Shown here in pieces: positions 59 through 11,053 of a DNA stretch of 64,000 nt. The position numbers and the translations under genes are program-made. Positions within the stretch are counted from its first letter, which is position 1, and every line of letters starts with the position of its first letter. The notes under the pieces were generated by a model. That model did no database searches, was not told the origin of the DNA, and was given only the letters and a program-made list of their open reading frames with translations. Origin of the DNA: Limnobacter sp. (GTDB taxonomy: Bacteria; Pseudomonadota; Gammaproteobacteria; Burkholderiales; Burkholderiaceae_B). The stretch lies in NCBI GenBank assembly GCA_029866125.1, contig JARWZZ010000007.1:341519-405518 (forward strand), read 5' to 3'.

Positions 59-148
59 GGAAGCTTGGGTGAGCGGTTTAAACCAGCAGTCTTGAAAACT
101 GCCGAGGATGTGAGTCCTCCGTGAGTTCGAATCTCACAGCTTCCGCCA
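59..148 (+). tRNA. tRNA-Ser(TGA), long variable arm, encoded CCA
   Basis: Acceptor stem GGAAGCT/AGCTTCC, anticodon loop CT-TGA-AA, T-loop GTTCGAATC, 3' GCCA; TATAAT at 44-49 upstream. Confidence 0.97.
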
Positions 149-149
149 A
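135..149 (+). repeat. att core direct repeat, tRNA-proximal (attL)
   Basis: CACAGCTTCCGCCAA, identical to 6498-6512. Confidence 0.92.
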
Positions 150-160
150 GAACGTAATGA

Positions 161-187
161 AATAGCGCCTTTCGGGGCGCTTTTTCA
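161..187 (+). terminator. Intrinsic terminator supplied by the island after tRNA-Ser
   Basis: GCGCC-TTTCGG-GGCGC hairpin followed by a T run. Confidence 0.75.
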
Positions 188-190
188 TTT

Positions 191-212
191 CTACCCATGT
201 TCCTACCCATGT
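191..212 (+). repeat. Tandem CTACCCATGT x2 (12-bp period), likely integrase arm-type sites
   Basis: The same tandem motif recurs at 6355-6375 near the other end of the island. Confidence 0.7.
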
Positions 213-436
213 TTTTTCGCTCGCTTGAGCGTGTCAGATAGCCCTTTGTGGCCACTCTGAATCCCTTATCGCCGCCACTACGCGTTTGTTGTGTTTTTGC
301 AAATTACTTTAACCGTTGCGGTCCAATCCGAGCAGGGGGGAAGATTTTTGCCACAATAGCAACACAGGCCAAAGGAATTGGCGTCTGTAATATCTACTTT
401 TGACAATCAAAATATTCATCCTACTGGGCATAAGTC

Positions 437-1039
437 ATGTATTGCAGATCTGCTTTTATTGGGTTATTGCTTTTGAGTGGTGCTTGCTCAGATGGCCCGA
501 CCGCACGAAATACGGAAAATATTGATGTAACGCCAATCCCGGAACAGGCATTTTATTTCGGAGCCAAAGAGGCCCCTTACAAAGAGTTAATTCTGAGGGG
601 AATTCAAATGGTTCAGAGAGATAATCCAGTTTGCCGCAAGGATATTCAGCCTTACTCCTTGGCTATGTCGCCCTCAAAAGGCACGGCTGACGACCCGGTC
701 TTTTTTATTACATGCGGGTCTGACGCCAAAGCCTTTAACGTTTGGTTCTCCAAATCGCAAATTGAGAACGACCAGAGCGTCAAAGCACCTGAAAACCTGC
801 CAAGAGCCAAATTGTTATCGTTGTGTGAGGATTGGATTCGCTCTCAGGCAACAAATCCGCACACGGTCGACATGTCTCTAATAGTGAACGCCAGGATAGA
901 AAACTTTGCGAACGGTAACTCAAGGCTATCAACCACTTTCAATGCCAAAAACAAACTCAACCAAGAGTCGAAATTTGGTGCTACCTGCTTGGTTGAACCT
1001 GACGGCCAGGTGGAAGGTCAAGTGACGTTGCTAAATTGA
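437..1039 (+). CDS. Hypothetical lipoprotein, 200 aa (island cargo)
   Basis: Lipobox-like LLSGA-C at residue 17; opposite strand to the core satellite genes; TTGACA at 400-405 upstream. Confidence 0.8.
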   Translation: MYCRSAFIGLLLLSGACSDGPTARNTENIDVTPIPEQAFYFGAKEAPYKELILRGIQMVQRDNPVCRKDIQPYSLAMSPSKGTADDPVFFITCGSDAKAFNVWFSKSQIENDQSVKAPENLPRAKLLSLCEDWIRSQATNPHTVDMSLIVNARIENFANGNSRLSTTFNAKNKLNQESKFGATCLVEPDGQVEGQVTLLN

Positions 1040-1069
1040 TTACCCTGCGTGTTATGGGCGGTGGTCACT

Positions 1070-1163
1070 AATCAAAGTTTTGTAACTAACTCAATTAATT
1101 TGATCTTTAGATAACTTATGCGAGTTCGCATGACCCGCAAGGGACACCCCCCGGGAAGGACCC
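1070..1163 (-). other. Candidate lambdoid cos packaging site (cosQ 1157-1163, cosN-like ~1119-1140, IHF box 1070-1082)
   Basis: Minus strand reads GGGTCCT-TCCCGGGGGGTGTCCC-TTGCGGGTCATGCGAACTCGCA; AATCAAAGTTTTG matches WATCAANNNNTTR exactly. Confidence 0.6.
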
Positions 1164-1245
1164 AAGGGGGTGGGGGGTGTATGGCCCTCTGCCCAAGCCT
1201 TGTCTCATTCAGCGCCGCCGGTCATTCGGGCAGGGGTGGTGGGTC

Positions 1246-1341
1246 TTATGGTAGCTTTGGGGGCTCTTTCAAGAAAAGCAGCACTAGTAGTACCAGAGGA
1301 AACAACAAAACGATCAAGGTAAATTTAATGAAGTTTGCCAA
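1246..1341 (-). CDS. Small hydrophobic peptide, 31 aa (MANFIKFTLIVLLFPLVLLVLLFLKEPPKLP)
   Basis: TTG start 8 nt after GGAG; single TM-like stretch; below the ORF track cutoff; translated by hand. Confidence 0.45.
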   Translation of the reverse strand: MANFIKFTLIVLLFPLVLLVLLFLKEPPKLP

Positions 1342-1493
1342 AGTCTAATCTCCAATTACCAATCGCCTGGTGGTCGGGTCGGCCGATTGTCTGAGCGTCC
1401 ATCATAGACTAGCTTTTTGAATTCTGCATATAGTCTCCCACCTTGGGCCATGTGGAGTTGTCGGGCAGGATGGCTATCCATAAAAATTGGTTC

Positions 1494-1607
1494 CAGACAG
1501 CGGACAAACGGACACACCTATAGGTGTGTGTCCGTGTATGTCCGGTCTTGGGAAGTGGGACGGACAGACATTGTCCGGACAATGTCTGGAGTTTGTCCGG
1601 TGTCCGG
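1494..1607. repeat. CGGACA/TGTCCG iteron and palindrome cluster, candidate replication origin
   Basis: 9 hexamer copies in 1501-1606; perfect 24-bp palindrome at 1565-1588; directly downstream of the primase stop codon. Confidence 0.7.
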
Positions 1608-1609
1608 TA

Positions 1610-3604
1610 TTAAAATTTCCAGAAATAGCCATGACTGCCCGCAATCAATCCCATTTTGCGAAGGTCCTCCACTGCCCGCCGAAAAGCCTTTTGCCTTGTT
1701 CCCACCGGAGCCCCCTGATCGAAACTAGGGCATGCATAGAACAAATCCCGCCAAACGTGTTCGGGGACACACTCCCTTGGCGCGTCCAAGCCCATCTTTT
1801 CGACTACTTCATAGGGCGTTTGAACCGCCTTCCCGTTCTCGCTGGCGGTGGTTAGACACTCGAGCGCATCCACCTGCCTGGCACTTAATTTGTGTCTTTT
1901 GGCGGTGTTTGTTGGTGCTTCAGTGGGCACCAGTACCGCAGACATTTGCAGTTCCCCGGTGTCAGGGTCAACAGGCCAGTCGTTGAGCACTACGTCCAGT
2001 AGATCGAAGGATTGGTCTGGACCAGGCTCGATCTCCTTTTGCTTGGTGGTCTTGAGTGTCCGTGTCCCTTCCTTGTTTGTCAGCGCGAAGGCGGAATCCA
2101 CCCCAGCGGGTAGGGCACTGGCTCCGCGCGACCTATCGCCTTCCCCGTGGCCTACATGGTGCACAATCAGCACAGTGCAGTTGAAGGGGCGAAGGAAGAA
2201 TCTTTCGATGTGGTGCAGTATTTTGGCTACATCCGAGTTTGAGTTTTCATCCCCACCACCTGTGCGGTTAAATGTATCCAGCACCAGCAAGGACAGTGGA
2301 CCGTTTGTCTCCACAATGTAATTAACGGCGTTGTGTGCATCAAAGCAGGACGTTTCATCAATCAGTTGCACCGTACGTTGATTGAAAAACATTGGAACCT
2401 CAGCAATTTCCACCTGGTTGTATTTTGCCCAGGCAGCGCAGCGACGACGGAAACCCGCAAACCCTTCCCCTGCAAGGTAACAAACCCCACCCTGCTTAAC
2501 CTTTCGCCCATTCCATTCACGCCCGGTAGCGACACACAATGACCAATCCAATGACAAAAAACTTTTGCCGGCAGATGGGGGGCCAAATAGCAGGGCCAGC
2601 GCCCCCGCTTCAATGTGTCCATGAATGAGCCAGTCAGGCGGTGCTTTATCCTTGAGCATTTCGCCGATTGGAACGAAATAGCTTTCCACCGCATCCACTG
2701 CACCTGGTGCGATGGGCCTTGGAGCCTTGGACGCGGGATTGATCCACCCGAGGGCTTGGGCTTCCTTGAAAATTGCAGGGTAGCCCGTTTGCACGCCGTT
2801 AAAGCTATCCCATTTTTCGGCGGCTTCTACTTCGTCAAAACGCGTGTCTGTCTCGGACCATTCAAACCACAATTCCCGGCCAACCTCGCCCAGTGCTTTC
2901 AATCGTTGACCGTTGCGAATCCAGGCGTCGTAATTGGTCGCCTCTAGGCTGCGCAGTGCAGATTTAATGTCCCGTATGGTGGTCGCGTCGATGTGGTCAG
3001 TTTCCACTTGGTGAGTTTCTTCGGCTGGTATTTGGGTCGCAGCATTGGGTTTGGGTTTGAGCAATTGTGATAGCCGCATTTTCACACTCTCGGGCAGGGA
3101 TTTCACTTCGTTAGAATTCACCCTCTGCCCGGTGAATGTCACGAACCCATTACGCCCGAATACCTCCACCCCTATTGAATTGTTTTTGGCGCTAGGCATG
3201 CTGCCCATCCAAATTGCATGGATACCTTTCCCACCCGGTGATCGTTCAGCATAGGTGGTGCCTGCTAAGGCTTCAGCGTCGGGGTGTAGCCCCTGCCCGT
3301 GTTTGTCGTCAAAGTCGCCAATGGTGATTCCAAATTCGGGCAGTGTGGCAATCCCAAGGCCTGCATATCCACCGCCATTGAGCACATCTAGGGCTACATC
3401 AAACATGGCCAGCTTGGATTTGTCTTCCTCAGTGCCATGACCACCCCGGGTGGTCCCGTTGACGTAATAGGGAATCTTTGCAACTTTCCCACTTTGTTGT
3501 CGGATTGCCTTCCACAGCACCCAGCATTTAAGGTGGCGTAGGGCTTCAGGGCAGGCGGCTTGTAAACGGTCGGTGATGGTTACAATTTGTGGGTTTTGGT
3601 TCAC
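1610..3604 (-). CDS. Primase-helicase: prim-pol (NrS-1-like AEP) + PriCT-2 + AAA_25/RepA-type helicase
   Basis: WVLWK..KIPY and GDFDD prim-pol motifs; Walker A GPPSAGKS and Walker B LLVLDT. Likely GTG start at 3604 overlaps the upstream stop (GTGA); the ORF track extends it to 3697. Confidence 0.88.
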   Translation of the reverse strand: MNQNPQIVTITDRLQAACPEALRHLKCWVLWKAIRQQSGKVAKIPYYVNGTTRGGHGTEEDKSKLAMFDVALDVLNGGGYAGLGIATLPEFGITIGDFDDKHGQGLHPDAEALAGTTYAERSPGGKGIHAIWMGSMPSAKNNSIGVEVFGRNGFVTFTGQRVNSNEVKSLPESVKMRLSQLLKPKPNAATQIPAEETHQVETDHIDATTIRDIKSALRSLEATNYDAWIRNGQRLKALGEVGRELWFEWSETDTRFDEVEAAEKWDSFNGVQTGYPAIFKEAQALGWINPASKAPRPIAPGAVDAVESYFVPIGEMLKDKAPPDWLIHGHIEAGALALLFGPPSAGKSFLSLDWSLCVATGREWNGRKVKQGGVCYLAGEGFAGFRRRCAAWAKYNQVEIAEVPMFFNQRTVQLIDETSCFDAHNAVNYIVETNGPLSLLVLDTFNRTGGGDENSNSDVAKILHHIERFFLRPFNCTVLIVHHVGHGEGDRSRGASALPAGVDSAFALTNKEGTRTLKTTKQKEIEPGPDQSFDLLDVVLNDWPVDPDTGELQMSAVLVPTEAPTNTAKRHKLSARQVDALECLTTASENGKAVQTPYEVVEKMGLDAPRECVPEHVWRDLFYACPSFDQGAPVGTRQKAFRRAVEDLRKMGLIAGSHGYFWKF

Positions 3605-3912
3605 CGGTGTATCCCCCCAAAAAGTCGGGCGGTGTCCCTGCTGATTCGGTAACGCGCCAGCAATGGGTTGACTTCTTTCTCCCGTTCTACTGGCCAACCT
3701 TGTTTTATGAGCCAGTCAATGATTTGCGATAAGTCACCAAAAGCGTCAAACGCCCACTCGATTGGGTCCAGCAGGTGCCCGTGCGCCATTAGCTCCAAGG
3801 CCTTGTACTCCAAGGTGTAGCGTGGTGGTAGGGCGGGCTTTCGATAGCGAATAAGATGCACCAATGAGGCTTTAGCGGGCTTCATGTTGTCGGGGGTGTT
3901 GTGCGTTGTCAT
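3601..3912 (-). CDS. Hypothetical protein, 103 aa, possibly winged-helix DNA-binding
   Basis: 4-bp overlaps with alpA (ATGA) and the primase (GTGA); C-terminal LSQIIDWLIKQGWPVE..ARYRI pattern resembles wHTH. Confidence 0.7.
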   Translation of the reverse strand: MTTHNTPDNMKPAKASLVHLIRYRKPALPPRYTLEYKALELMAHGHLLDPIEWAFDAFGDLSQIIDWLIKQGWPVEREKEVNPLLARYRISRDTARLFGGIHR

Positions 3913-4139
3913 GCCAGCACCCCTTTGCTTTTCTGAATCAGGTCGTTAATCCAGGCCTCCACCACGCTTTCAGGCCAAAGCGCGACTCGCTCCCCAAATT
4001 TCACGGGCGCAGGGAATGAGCCCACAGCAATGAGTTGATATATTGTGGAACGTGATATACCGCAGCGGGTAGTAACATCCCGCATACGCAGCAATCGGGC
4101 AGGGGGTGTAGGCGTTTGGGGTTGTGTGTTGTTGTCCAT
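3909..4139 (-). CDS. alpA: AlpA-family transcriptional regulator / recombination directionality factor
   Basis: LLRMRDVTTRCGISRSTIYQLIAVGSFPAPVKFGERVALWPESVVEAWI is a typical AlpA HTH. Confidence 0.95.
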   Translation of the reverse strand: MDNNTQPQTPTPPARLLRMRDVTTRCGISRSTIYQLIAVGSFPAPVKFGERVALWPESVVEAWINDLIQKSKGVLA

Positions 4140-4231
4140 TTGAGCACCTTGTACTTGTTGAGGTGCTTCTTATTGAATAGATCGGAATGAGGGCTAGAAA
4201 GGAAACAATTTATAAAACAATTGTTCCCCCC

Positions 4232-4735
4232 TTAGTCTCCATTTGGAACTTCTGTTGCCTGGACCGGTAATCCCATTAACTTGAGTTGTCCAGGGTCTCC
4301 ACCAATTTTCAGGTATCGGCGCTGCCCGCGATTCAACTTGGTTTTGAAAGACTCGCAAAGTTTGCCAGCGGACTCATCGTCGATACTCGGGTGTGCGGCT
4401 AACACTTTCTGCCTGACAAATTGATTTTTTGAGAGTGTCCGGTCATTTGACCACCTCCCAACAAACTCGATAAACAATTCCAAATCTTCCTGCCTGAGAT
4501 TTCGTCTATCAGGCCCTTCGATATTTCCGCGTAGGGTTTCCGCGATAATCCACCTTTCAAAAGGATTAAGGGAATTCGCCTGCTCAACCACGTTGGATAG
4601 AAGGTCAATATCTCCCGAGTTGAGGTAATCCAACAAACCGGTCAAAAACTCGCCGGTTACCTTACCCTCTTTACCGTTGACCTTTGTCGGAAGGTCTACG
4701 CCCCCAAAGGAAATTCCTAGTTTGCTCATCAACAC
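4232..4735 (-). CDS. Hypothetical protein, 167 aa
   Basis: Open frame co-oriented between int and alpA; no family recognised. Confidence 0.7.
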   Translation of the reverse strand: MLMSKLGISFGGVDLPTKVNGKEGKVTGEFLTGLLDYLNSGDIDLLSNVVEQANSLNPFERWIIAETLRGNIEGPDRRNLRQEDLELFIEFVGRWSNDRTLSKNQFVRQKVLAAHPSIDDESAGKLCESFKTKLNRGQRRYLKIGGDPGQLKLMGLPVQATEVPNGD

Positions 4736-4746
4736 CCTTCAGATGT

Positions 4747-4818
4747 GTTCCTTCGTAATCGGGACCACCGCCAGGGGGTGAAGGAACCCCTTTTCGATTC
4801 GCGGGTCTAGGCGGTGGT
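4747..4818 (-). ncRNA. Candidate structured cis-regulatory RNA (int-alpA-motif-like) with possible pseudoknot
   Basis: 9-bp stem ACCACCGCC/GGCGGTGGT, inner GGGGT/ACCCC hairpin; GTTCCTTC (4747-4754) is complementary to GAAGGAAC (4780-4787). Confidence 0.5.
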
Positions 4819-4836
4819 GCTTAAAACTTGGCGCTC

Positions 4837-5013
4837 TCAGGGTGCCTTATTATTCAAGGCTTCCCCCGCCTGCTCGAGTAGAGTTTGAACCGCCCAAATC
4901 GCTAATAGGTTTGTTTGGTCTAGGCCTGGGCGCGACATGGCGTCCTCCCCAACCATCAAGTCGAGAATTGCCCGCGCCTGGGTAATGCGTTCGTTAATCA
5001 AATCTGAGTTCAT
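4837..5013 (-). CDS. Small hypothetical protein, 58 aa (MNSDLINERITQARAILDLMVGED...)
   Basis: ATG preceded by GAGGAA; follows the int stop by 31 nt; absent from the ORF track (<60 aa). Confidence 0.65.
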   Translation of the reverse strand: MNSDLINERITQARAILDLMVGEDAMSRPGLDQTNLLAIWAVQTLLEQAGEALNNKAP

Positions 5014-5044
5014 TTAGTTAGTTCCTCGCTAGAAAATTAGTTAA

Positions 5045-6340
5045 TCAAGCCGTTCTAATCGGAATGACCGTCGCGGGGGAATCTGCCTTATCGCAGAAGT
5101 CGGCCCAATCCTGCATCAATCGAATCCTTTTATCGAGCAAGTTGCCGCGCATGTAAGCGGCGACCACCTTGTCGGTCAAGTTGTGCGCCAAAGCCTTTTC
5201 AAGCACCTCATGTGGATAGGCCGTGCGCTCTCCACCCCAAACTCTGAATGTGGACCTGAAACCATGAACCGTGACCGTCCTAGGCTCTTTGCCTGGCTCC
5301 CCTTGCTTGCGGTCCACCCATCCAAGCCCATCAGCCTTCAGCTTTTCAGCGTGTAGCCTTCGCAAAGTTGCGGTCAGAGTCATGTCGGATAACATTGAAC
5401 CACCAGGGGAGAAAAACACGTAATCTGAAGCGGTCCGTGGCAAAGACTCGAGCAAACGTATTACCTGGTCTGACAGTGGGACGGTGTGCTCCCTGCCTGC
5501 TTTCATCCGGGCAGGGGGGATGGTCCACAATTTGTTAGCCAAATCAAACTCGTTCCATTTCGCGCCTCTGACTTCCCCCGATCTGGTAGCGGTCAACATG
5601 CAAAACTCAATCGCCTTGGCTGCCATGCCTTCTCTTTGCCTAAGTGCCGCCAGGAATGCACCAATCTCGACGTAATCAAGCGCTGGGAAGTGCCGTTCCC
5701 CCTGCACCTTGCTAGGGGTTGCCAATTGGTGTTGAAGGTGCCCCTTCCACCTAGCAGGGTTTTCTCCCGTGCGGTATTCCCTAGAAGTCGCCCAGTCAAG
5801 CACCGCCTCAATCCTCCCGCGCAAACGGGACGCGGTTTCGTTCTTCGTCAGCCATATCGGCTCTAGCACTTGGAGCACTAAGCCCGTGTCCACGGCAGAC
5901 ACGGGCAGTTTGCCTAGTTTGGGCTCCGCGTATGTCTCCAAAGTGGACACCCACTGGTTCACATGCTTTGTGTTTTTCCAGTCTGGCGACTTTGCTTTGA
6001 TGTAGAGTTTGGCGCATTCACTGAAGGTTAGGTCCTTCGCTGCCTCTACCCTTGCCCTGGACTTCGCTGCATCCCTTTCCACAATTGGGTCACGGCCCTC
6101 ATGGACACTTTGCCGTGCCTGGCCTGCTCGCTCTCTGGCAGATGAAAGCCCAAAGGTATCCAGAGGCCCTAAACCCATTTCCCTGGGCTTGCCAGTTACT
6201 GGGGAGGTGAACCTAAAGACCCATGACTTAGCCCCACTGGCGGTGACCTGGAGAAACAATCCGCCCCCGTCACTCAAATGTCCCGGCTTGGTGGCCTTGG
6301 TTACAGCCAAGGCTGTCAGCTTGTGAATTGATTTGGCCAT
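5045..6340 (-). CDS. P4/IntA-family tyrosine integrase with N-terminal arm-binding domain
   Basis: DGGGLFLQV..GAKSWVFRF arm-binding domain; catalytic residues in TRSGEV, HGFRSTF, LAH, AAY. Confidence 0.96.
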   Translation of the reverse strand: MAKSIHKLTALAVTKATKPGHLSDGGGLFLQVTASGAKSWVFRFTSPVTGKPREMGLGPLDTFGLSSARERAGQARQSVHEGRDPIVERDAAKSRARVEAAKDLTFSECAKLYIKAKSPDWKNTKHVNQWVSTLETYAEPKLGKLPVSAVDTGLVLQVLEPIWLTKNETASRLRGRIEAVLDWATSREYRTGENPARWKGHLQHQLATPSKVQGERHFPALDYVEIGAFLAALRQREGMAAKAIEFCMLTATRSGEVRGAKWNEFDLANKLWTIPPARMKAGREHTVPLSDQVIRLLESLPRTASDYVFFSPGGSMLSDMTLTATLRRLHAEKLKADGLGWVDRKQGEPGKEPRTVTVHGFRSTFRVWGGERTAYPHEVLEKALAHNLTDKVVAAYMRGNLLDKRIRLMQDWADFCDKADSPATVIPIRTA

Positions 6341-6354
6341 AATTGGTCCGTTTC

Positions 6355-6375
6355 CTACCCATGTCCCTACCCACG
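6355..6375 (+). repeat. Tandem CTACCCATGT/CTACCCACG, likely integrase arm-type sites
   Basis: Matches 191-212 with the same 12-bp period; lies just upstream of the int start. Confidence 0.7.
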
Positions 6376-6490
6376 AAAATATAGCAGATTTGGGTGGATT
6401 TTCCTGTATTTCTTTGGACGATAAATCGCTCAGATAACCAATCTGCGCGGGTCTTGGGTGGGTGTTGTGGATCTTCCTCGGACTACCCTA

Positions 6491-6512
6491 TGGCGGACAC
6501 AGCTTCCGCCAA
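6491..6512 (+). repeat. attR: duplicated tRNA 3' end with symmetric core TGGCGGA-CACAGCT-TCCGCCA
   Basis: Direct repeat of 135-149; perfect 7-bp inverted repeat around a 7-bp spacer. Confidence 0.9.
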
Positions 6513-6519
6513 AAACACC

Positions 6520-9361: not shown

Positions 9362-11053
9362 ATGACCAGCAACCTGTTTAAACAACTTTCTAATCCTGCA
9401 CGGTTGGCCTTGCTGCTTCTTGCGCTGGTGTTTTTAAATGCGGTGCTGAGTTTTACCGCTGTGTGGCCCACTTTGTTTGTGGTGCCCGATGCACGAATTT
9501 CCCCCGAGTTTATTGGCTTTTTGGTGGTGTTGACGGCATGGATGGCCTTGGCCGGCAAACCTGCGCAGCGAGTTTTGGCTGTTGCGGCAGGCTTTTATGC
9601 TTTGTTGGTGCTGTGCAGGTATGCGGATGTGGTTATTCCCAATATATTGGGGCGCCCGGTTAACTTGTATTGGGACGTGCCTGAATTGCCCCGGTTTGCA
9701 TGGGTAACAGCCCAAGGTTTGCCGTGGTGGCTTTCAGTGTCCGCACTTGTTTTAATGGTAGGGGCGGTGTGGGGCTTTCACAGGCTGTTGCTCAAATCCA
9801 TGTTGACTGTGGTTGATGGTTTGCAACCCTTTGCGCGTCGCCCATGGCTGTGGGGTATTTTGCTGCTGCTTTCTGCAGGCGCCGCCACTTGCTATTTGGG
9901 TTTGCGCAATCCAGATTCACCCCTTGTAAAAGCCGTGGCCACAGTGGTGTCCAAGCCTGTGCTGCCCACCTATGTCACTGAACTTGGCAAGCTGTGGGAC
10001 ATCATGTCCCCAGAACGTGCAGCGCGCCTACTGCCCGAGTCCACGGTGGTAGACGCTGCGCTTAAAAAACCAGTTGGCAGGTCGTTGGCCCAATTGCAGG
10101 GCCGCGATGTGCACCTGATTTTTCTTGAAACCTATGGTGCTGTGCTTTATGACCAAGCAGAATCTGAAGCCGCCACTGTGGATACGCGCAACCAGCTTGA
10201 AAAGGCCATACAAACCAGTGGTCGGCAAGTGGTGTCTGCGTTTTACAAATCACCCACCATTGGTGGCGCAAGCGATTTGGCGCATTTGTCGTTGTTATCG
10301 GGTATTGATTTGAGCGATTCCCGCAAACACGATGTGCTGCTGACCACAACCCGGCCCACTTTGTTGAAGGTGTTTCAACACGAGGGTTATGACGTGTTTG
10401 GTTTATACCATTCTGTGGCTTGGGACTGGGTGGAACGTGTTTTTTACGGCTTTGATGTGTATTTGAGTGGGCCAGATTTGGGTTATGAAGGGCCTGCATT
10501 TGGGTTTTGGAAAATACCCGACCAATTTGCAATTGCGCGTGTGGAGCAAATGTACCCGCGGACCCAAAGCGCAAAGCCACGCTTGACCCTGTTCCCAACC
10601 ATATCAAGCCATTTTCCGTTTCACCAAGTGCCGCCTTACCAGCCAGATTGGCAGCGCCTTTTAGGGCCTAATCCCTTTGAAGCGGACGACGCTGCTCGCG
10701 CACAGGCTGAGCCTGTAAGCTGGGAATACATGAAGCCGGACTACCTACGAACCATCAATTATGTGAACACGTGGTTGGCGGGTATGTTCAAGCAACCGGA
10801 GCCACGCGAGACGGTGTACCTGCTGATTGGCGACCACCAACCCACGGGCAGTGTGACCCGTGAAGACACGCCTTGGGATGTGCCCGTGTTTGTGGTGTCA
10901 AGTGATGCCCAGTTGCTGGATGCTTTTCGCGCCCAAGGCTTTAGTGATGGATTACGTCCCAAGCAACGCAAACCCCTCGGCGGCCTTCACGACCTGACCG
11001 AGGTGTTACTCAAAGGGTTTGGGGGCAGCGTCACCGAACTTACATCTAAATAG
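9362..11053 (+). CDS. Membrane-anchored alkaline-phosphatase/sulfatase-superfamily protein
   Basis: N-terminal TMs; LIFLETYG, SPTIGG, ISSHFPF and IGDHQP motifs; 3 nt after ndvB. Confidence 0.7.
   Translation: MTSNLFKQLSNPARLALLLLALVFLNAVLSFTAVWPTLFVVPDARISPEFIGFLVVLTAWMALAGKPAQRVLAVAAGFYALLVLCRYADVVIPNILGRPVNLYWDVPELPRFAWVTAQGLPWWLSVSALVLMVGAVWGFHRLLLKSMLTVVDGLQPFARRPWLWGILLLLSAGAATCYLGLRNPDSPLVKAVATVVSKPVLPTYVTELGKLWDIMSPERAARLLPESTVVDAALKKPVGRSLAQLQGRDVHLIFLETYGAVLYDQAESEAATVDTRNQLEKAIQTSGRQVVSAFYKSPTIGGASDLAHLSLLSGIDLSDSRKHDVLLTTTRPTLLKVFQHEGYDVFGLYHSVAWDWVERVFYGFDVYLSGPDLGYEGPAFGFWKIPDQFAIARVEQMYPRTQSAKPRLTLFPTISSHFPFHQVPPYQPDWQRLLGPNPFEADDAARAQAEPVSWEYMKPDYLRTINYVNTWLAGMFKQPEPRETVYLLIGDHQPTGSVTREDTPWDVPVFVVSSDAQLLDAFRAQGFSDGLRPKQRKPLGGLHDLTEVLLKGFGGSVTELTSK

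Follow-up and report, generated by a model that had tools for sequence, protein, structure and literature searches.

Satellites that lack a terminase and are packaged through a copied helper cos are exemplified by P4, which depends on helper P2, remodels capsids by means of psu, sid and delta and has 19-nt ends at a cos of P2 type, and by SaPIbov5, which encodes Ccm and relies on cos phages of the HNH type. In lambda, cosQ is the signal for termination of packaging. For lambda-like phages, it is established what cosQ, cosN and cosB do and that cosQ is strongly conserved (PMC4669245, PMC9026076). Lambda-type cosQ and cosN also occur in the E. coli cos-type PICIs, such as EcCICFT073, which carry int, alpA and a primase gene, keep cosQ and cosN to hijack the terminase of a lambda-like helper and have a cosB unlike those of known phages (PMC6092414, PMC6739421, PMC9026076). 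The PICMI satellites of Vibrionaceae, which measure approximately 6 kb, consist of int, a small ORF, alpA, a second small ORF, a primase gene and non-coding DNA, and contain no packaging or capsid genes; they lie next to fis, encode a DUF3987/DUF5906 primase, depend on a virulent phage and have random (headful) ends, with no cos identified (PMC10803314). Packaging of PICMI DNA as 8 copies was shown experimentally (PMC10803314).

The locus described here was found in the window, that is, the whole 64-kb stretch of Limnobacter DNA that was analysed, and forms a satellite-like island of approximately 6.36 kb (~149-6516) that is bounded by att repeats and adjoins a tRNA-Ser(UGA) gene (Table 1). 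The order of features on the minus strand is integrase, 58-aa ORF, int-alpA RNA, orf167, AlpA, orf103 and primase-helicase. Thus, the island combines an integrase and att repeats with an excision regulator and a replication module of its own, while structural and lysis genes are absent, no recognisable terminase, capsid, portal or lysis gene having been noted in Pfam and PHROGs searches. As judged from annotation, this gene content and the size of the island match a small phage satellite. The 58-, 103- and 167-aa ORFs could conceal a packaging factor. No match to orf167 or orf103 was obtained in Pfam, PHROGs or a PDB sequence search, and the models of these proteins from single-sequence AlphaFold (pLDDT 44 and 48, respectively) were too poor to judge the fold. 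The 200-aa ORF at the other end of the island had no Pfam match, and its matches in PHROGs were all of unknown function.

The array of GGACA/TGTCC units next to the primase gene was near-invariant in four elements with primases only 54-68% identical and is likely, from this conservation, a strongly constrained candidate replication origin. Between this array and the cos-type site described below, a tiny hydrophobic ORF of 23 codons with a TTG start (1246-1317, minus strand) was noted; at the counterpart place in the related element L008, a membrane-like 43-aa peptide was called (10246-10377).

Table 1. Features of the Limnobacter island and of compared loci; positions are those of the window unless a contig is named, and descending positions are read on the minus strand.
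Feature	Position	Strand	Remarks
tRNA-Ser(UGA)	59-148	+	ARAGORN; Rfam tRNA match; 3' end is the integration target
attL	135-153		direct repeat with 6498-6516, 18/19 identical
ORF, 200 aa, uncharacterised cargo	437-1039	+	convergent with cos; fills the remainder of the island past cos
Candidate cosB	1064-1118	-	AT-rich (~40 nt before the IHF consensus)
Two TTAGT[T/G]AC repeats (TTAGTNAC)	1089-1082, 1071-1064	-	flank the IHF core; read from sequence
IHF consensus CAAAACTTTGATT	1082-1070	-	AATCAAAGTTTTG on the + strand at 1070-1082; exact WATCAANNNNTTR
cosN-like candidate nicking site TTGCGGGTCATGCGAACTCGCA	1140-1119	-	imperfect dyad TGCGGGT/ACTCGCA, 6/7
Predicted cohesive-end segment GGGTCATGCGAAC	1136-1124	-	terminus expected after 1124 (+/- 1 nt)
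cosQ-cosN spacer TCCCGGGGGGTGTCCC, 16 nt	1156-1141	-	TCCC...G-run...CCC style, as in phage cos sites
cosQ heptamer GGGTCCT	1163-1157	-	exact match; same heptamer in lambda cosQ and before terS in GpA prophages and viral contigs
C run ACACCCCCCACCCCC	1180-1166	-	upstream of cosQ; TT between C run and GGGTCCT
Iteron/palindrome array, GGACA/TGTCC units	1494-1620	-	immediately after primase stop codon
Same array in relatives	L006 6590-6740; L008 10010-10130; L014 5434-5560
Primase-helicase, PriCT_2 + AAA_25	1610-3697	-	Pfam; PHROGs DNA primase/helicase
orf103, 103 aa	3601-3912	-	no family assignment
AlpA-family excisionase/regulator	3909-4139	-	Pfam PF05930, E = 3.6e-14
orf167, 167 aa	4232-4735	-	no family assignment
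int-alpA RNA motif	4750-4817	-	Rfam RF02996, 52.4 bits (gathering score 35.8); between integrase side and orf167/alpA
Tyrosine integrase	5045-6340	-	Pfam Arm-DNA-bind_3, Phage_int_M, Phage_integrase
attR	6498-6516	+	copy of tRNA-Ser 3' end
Primase-helicase loci of a cos-phage subgroup	L120 168-2612; L128 421-3069; L108 2955-5003; L129 11066-13507; L225

A packaging signal of lambda type had been proposed for this region by a sequence-only reading, and each of the elements on which that proposal was based (a C run, GGGTCCT, a gap of 16 nt, a dyad and an IHF consensus) was located as placed there. In addition, ACACCCCCC (1180-1172) and GGGGGGTGT (1152-1144), as read from the sequence, form a 9-bp inverted repeat around cosQ. 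Neither GGGTCCT nor the IHF consensus alone was above chance, with 3 occurrences of the former in the window versus 6.0 expected and 4 occurrences of the latter versus 2.9 expected. The composite of cosQ, spacer and cosN is far above chance.

Comparison with lambda was based on the cos sequence in record NC_001416. In this record, the site reads ...ACGGGTCCT-TTCCGGTGATCCGACAGG-TTACG, followed by GGGCGGCGACCT and CGCGGG. In agreement with the earlier proposal, order, polarity and spacing of the elements were as in lambda within 1-2 nt, the spacer being 16 nt in the island as opposed to 18 nt in NC_001416 and GGGTCCT lying 28 nt before the position equivalent to the lambda nick as opposed to 30 nt. 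The order and polarity of cosQ, spacer, cosN and AT-rich cosB are likewise those of the other phages of the lambda-like group (21, phi80, N15 and Gifsy-1), which have GpA-type terminases. A GCGA(A)C..CGC core that contains a dyad is common to the island and lambda, the island sequence aligning to ...GCGACCT/CGCG of lambda, and in both a match to the IHF consensus follows cosN in the orientation of lambda I1. In coordinates that start at the first G of the 13-mer, I1 occupies bp 79-91 and has one mismatch to the IHF consensus whereas the island core occupies bp 55-67, is exact and thus lies approximately 24 nt nearer cosN. The TTAGT[T/G]AC repeats around this core recall the R3-I1-R2 order of lambda (PMC4669245), yet the R-type repeats themselves are unrelated. 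Further differences are the cohesive-end sequence, which is of GGGTCATGCGAAC type in the island as opposed to GGGCGGCGACCT in lambda, the host, which is not an enterobacterium, and the lack of terS and terL after the site. The position in which a phage would carry terS is occupied by the convergent 200-aa ORF, which has no similarity to terminase; the site is not part of a phage packaging operon, and the missing adjacent terminase is the state expected of a satellite copy.

The Limnobacter genome encodes both IHF alpha and IHF beta (above curated cut-offs), and an A/T tract followed by short repeats, for example GGTAGTCA or AGTGAC, was also seen in phage cos sites of the lambda-type group. Since neither the cosB of the island nor its exact cosN was found among phages of INPHARED, IMG/VR and the family genomes, assignment of the segment that includes the IHF site as a functional cosB is, on this sequence evidence, only plausible.

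Alignment to the cos regions that precede terS in related prophages, which the sequence-only reading had proposed for this genome as well as for relatives, was positive for prophages of relatives; the genome itself has no GpA prophage. Prophages with a GpA terminase were present in 32 of 401 genomes of the family, including two of the same genus (L079 and L080), and the large terminases of these two were confirmed to have the GpA ATPase and nuclease domains. In L079, CGGGTCCTTTTTCCAGACTCCCTTTACGGGCGAATGCAGCGCG was found 35-85 bp upstream of terS in the layout CGGGTCCT-TTTTCCAGACTCCCT-TTACGGGCGAATGCAGCGCG; in L080, TGGGTCCCTCCCAGCAAAGCATGGTGTAAGGGTAATGCGAACCTC was found upstream of terS in the layout TGGGTCCC-TCCCAGCAAAGCATGGTG-TAAGGGTAATGCGAACCTC. 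In both prophages, a small ORF comes shortly after this layout and is followed by the GpA gene. The same layout was noted 0.7-1.1 kb upstream of the GpA domain in four other prophages of the family (L086, L088, L090 and L093). Thus, all six sites consist of GGGTCC[T/C], approximately 16-20 nt and a cosN-like sequence. A homologue of minor tail protein Z (GPZ) is encoded just upstream of cosQ in L079 (2903-3496, minus strand), which places cos between a tail gene and terS in this prophage.

In the Limnobacter genome (3.28 Mb in 21 contigs, assembly 93% complete), by comparison, the site was unique, no second copy or near-copy having been noted even at 4-6 mismatches, and no GpA-type large terminase was found. 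The genome therefore has no resident helper, and the helper would come from outside. DNA searches with larger segments found no counterpart of the site: blastn of 1040-1260 against 50,697 phage records returned chance-level matches only, and a search of 201 family genomes with 1040-1640 returned origin-like fragments only, with no cos.

The distinctness of the site within the host genome was evident from results obtained with two profiles. The narrow profile was built from lambda and the six prophage sites only, which had been chosen through the terminase protein and not through the window sequence. With this profile, 1163-1124 on the minus strand was the top match in the 3.28-Mb genome, ranking first of 6.6 million positions; its E value of 1.9 is by itself a weak score, and the chance of the top match landing in the 6.4-kb island is approximately 0.2%. 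The broad profile, built from 44 dereplicated sites, gave E = 5e-8 genome-wide for the window site as opposed to E = 3 for the next-best match, a result that is partly circular because most members were fetched with patterns derived from the window. The top rank and the GpA prophages with the same layout support the earlier claim that the element, although it encodes no terminase, carries a cos for the terminase of a lambdoid helper.

The same arrangement of cosQ, spacer and cosN was found in approximately 100 viral contigs. Of the two IMG/VR search patterns, both derived from the window site, GGGTCCN{18,24}GGGTNATGCGAAC (pattern 1) matched 26 viral contigs compared with 2 for a reversed control, which was made for this pattern, and TGGGTCCTTN{13,15}CCNTGCGGGT (pattern 2) matched 75. 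Of the contigs whose downstream flank measured 2.5 kb or more, 7 of 14 for pattern 1 and 45 of 50 for pattern 2 had a co-oriented GpA gene with its start 515-893 bp past the site. Agreement extended to positions outside the search patterns, namely TCC(C) after cosQ, the G run of the spacer and CC before TGCGGGT, and the C run before cosQ was shared by most pattern-2 contigs and by L132. The composite in the island is, by these similarities, a phage cos. Its predicted cohesive-end segment shares 12 of 13 bases with the GGGTAATGCGAAC core of the 26 pattern-1 contigs, all of which have A where the window has C. No viral contig contained an exact match to the 19-mer of the window cosN. A metagenome scan for the C variant gave 11 matches, about the number expected by chance, of which only L210 and L215, which contain the exact C-variant core, resemble a real cos, and yielded no helper.

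In a subgroup of the cos phages, the first gene after cos was not terS but encoded a Toprim/D5-like primase-helicase of approximately 800 aa (loci in Table 1), with GpA 3-7 kb further downstream. In L139, the gene right after cos (5007-6095) encodes a protein with a TIR-domain-like N-terminus, MIFLSYAREDANIAL..., as judged by eye; this gene may represent defence cargo in a cos-proximal position.

Five viral contigs (L109, L113, L115, L122 and L126; G401-G405) and the metagenome contig L210 stop exactly after GCGAAC. The end sequence of all six is ...GGGT(A/C)ATGCGAAC, with the C variant of the window in L210. The opposite end of G401, which is 35.8 kb and 96% complete, begins with CGCGAG..., the bases found right after GCGAAC in uninterrupted relatives. 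From these sequences, the stops after GCGAAC indicate a true end of the DNA, in the place of the lambda terminus, ...GCGACCT/CGCG. In a search meant to define the overhang, no contig was found to begin with the 13-mer. Such an asymmetry of ends, with contigs that stop after the 13-mer and none that start with it, is unlike that of a simple filled-in 5' overhang.

Occurrence of the site among relatives of the island was uneven. In the metagenomic elements L008-L013, with primases 58% identical to that of the island, a homologous segment was found in the same place, downstream of the origin; the cosN of these elements, GGGGGTTCGGCGACTCCGCG, is nearer to that of lambda than is the cosN of the window, and their cosQ is degenerate. 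Clear cos sites were also present in L017 (TTGGGTCCTTTCAGGAGTGCTTCCCCTGCGGGT) and L052, which are contigs of Magnetococcales MAGs with primases 32-38% identical, and a weak cos-type site was present in L014. No recognisable cos of lambda type was found in the close relatives L006, L238, L239 and L240, including by a scan with the broad profile, so that possession of the site varies within this island family. On sequence comparison, the packaging module appears to be exchangeable within the family. The same module of relatives with a weak or no cos contains small ORFs of 73-86 aa (L014 6553-6774, L006 7997-8224 and L238 3656-3916), that of L014 with a weak wHTH signal; these ORFs may be alternative packaging or regulatory modules.

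More widely, primase relatives in genome contigs were at most 36-43% identical, the best named one being from an uncultured betaproteobacterium (36% identity), and only L017 and L052 among them had a cos. Primase relatives in viral contigs (80 loci) had no cos of lambda type. Within the genus, in which 26 species were searched, the island primase was found in the host genome only and was absent from all other species.

Comparison with described satellites indicates a combination of features rather than membership of one group. Like EcCICFT073 and other E. coli cos-type PICIs, the island has int, alpA and primase genes, lambda-type cosQ and cosN and a cosB unlike those of known phages. It differs from this type in that neither rpp nor terS lies next to cos, with no co-oriented gene downstream, in that no capsid-related or interference gene is recognisable, in its size of 6.4 kb as opposed to 10-11 kb and in its bacterial lineage. 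A distant analogue of Rpp might be encoded elsewhere in the island, away from cos. With PICMI, the island shares its order of genes and non-coding DNA, its approximate size and the lack of packaging and capsid genes, and a concatemer in full-size heads would be expected for both. In contrast with PICMI, the island is targeted to tRNA-Ser, its primase is of the PriCT_2/AAA_25 type and its cos is explicit and of lambda type; by integration site, primase type and cos, it falls outside PICMI, which it nevertheless seems, by analogy, to resemble in its way of working. With P4 and SaPIbov5, the likeness lies in a copied helper cos and no terminase. However, the cos of the island is of lambda type as opposed to the P2 type of P4, and with no Pfam or PHROG match to psu, delta, sid, epsilon or Ccm the island is not a P4-like element.

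Taken together, we consider it likely that the island is an integrated phage satellite with a lambda-type cos on the minus strand that is packaged by the GpA-type terminase of a helper. As read from its sequence, the only packaging function of the island would be this cis-acting site, comprising cosQ, cosN and the candidate cosB (~1118-1064). Upon arrival or induction of the helper, an infecting or temperate phage with a GpA-type terminase, excision dependent on AlpA and Int would be triggered, and the primase-helicase would copy the resulting circle from the iteron origin to give multimers. The TerS/TerL holoenzyme of the helper, together with host IHF, would then bind cosB and nick cosN around GGGTCATGCGAAC, with DNA translocation towards cosB and thus through the cargo ORF, att, int and primase gene. 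Packaging would stop at a downstream cosQ-cosN once the head was full enough, cosQ serving for termination. With about 1/6 the length of a 36-45 kb helper genome and no recognisable gene for capsid size, the island would most likely be packaged as an oligomer of approximately 5-7 copies in full-size heads, for which PICMI provides the experimental precedent.

Alternatively, the cos might be real and its cosB private, with orf167 or orf103 acting as Rpp or as a satellite TerS to redirect the helper terminase. Such an arrangement agrees with the finding that the cosB of the island occurs in no phage and has a precedent in E. coli cos-type PICIs, in which helper cosQ and cosN are kept and a private cosB is read by an Rpp-TerS complex (PMC9026076, PMC6739421); moreover, orf167, a protein without family assignment, is within the size range of TerS and Rpp (135-153 aa for Rpp). 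We consider it unlikely, however, since the specificity gene of PICIs and phages is directly downstream of cos, where the island has a convergent unrelated ORF, and since sequence matches that would assign either protein to a family are lacking in Pfam, PHROGs and PDB. In addition, P4 and SaPIbov5 are examples of satellites that can use a helper cos with no redirecting protein.

The uneven distribution of the island and its site bears on a different proposal, namely that the cos is a relic of recombination with a lambda-like phage that no longer works, the island persisting or moving by other means. The host genome contains no helper, the island occurs in 1 of 26 species of the genus and several relatives have no such site, all of which would fit a relic. 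Against this stand the intact state of the island genes and of the site itself (cosQ heptamer, spacing, GGGT.ATGCGAAC core and dyad) and the retention of a cos-type site in the same module of islands with distant primases (38-58% identical), which argues for selection; a relic is rather improbable. Less credible still is chance resemblance or a different role in cis, for instance in terminating transcription, in binding a regulator or within the origin. It is true that the single motifs do not exceed chance and that protein binding or hairpin formation is conceivable for the GC-rich inverted repeat (1180-1172/1152-1144) and for the dyad in 1139-1119. Nevertheless, neither a terminator-like site nor an Rfam family was found at 1040-1200 in a terminator scan and an Rfam search, dozens of phages have this composite ahead of their terminase genes, and the site ranked first genome-wide with the profile made from phage sites only and reached the E value given above with the broad one, so that this explanation is very hard to sustain.

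In principle, a satellite with a cos is nothing new, as P4, SaPIbov5 and EcCICFT073 already use one, and with helper-cos copying by satellites so well established the conceptual gain is modest. The novelty lies in the lineage and in the pairing of an explicit lambda-type cos with a minimal gene set like that of PICMI. For a very small satellite, the cos provides a concrete packaging mechanism, with the DNA ends of the island predicted after 1124, within 1119-1140, and with the helper predicted to be a phage that has a GpA-type terminase and a cos of the form GGGTCCT...GGGT(A/C)ATGCGAAC. The occurrence of the lambda cosQ heptamer and of the cosQ-cosN layout in about a hundred environmental viral contigs indicates conservation well past enteric phages, and contig ends mark the cleavage site; this could help to locate cos sites and cos-only satellites overlooked by satellite finders based on proteins. 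Somewhat more tentatively, the island may represent an unrecognised and widespread class of minimal cos-only satellites outside enterobacteria, consisting of int, alpA, primase, origin and a copied cos, with swapped modules and with packaging as oligomers of approximately 6 copies in GpA phages, although we hold the case for such a class to be slightly short of even. If it exists, its members would include those in this genome, the metagenomic relatives and the Magnetococcales MAGs, and the packaging modules would have been swapped to follow local helpers, which would explain the other modules in some close relatives of the Limnobacter island.
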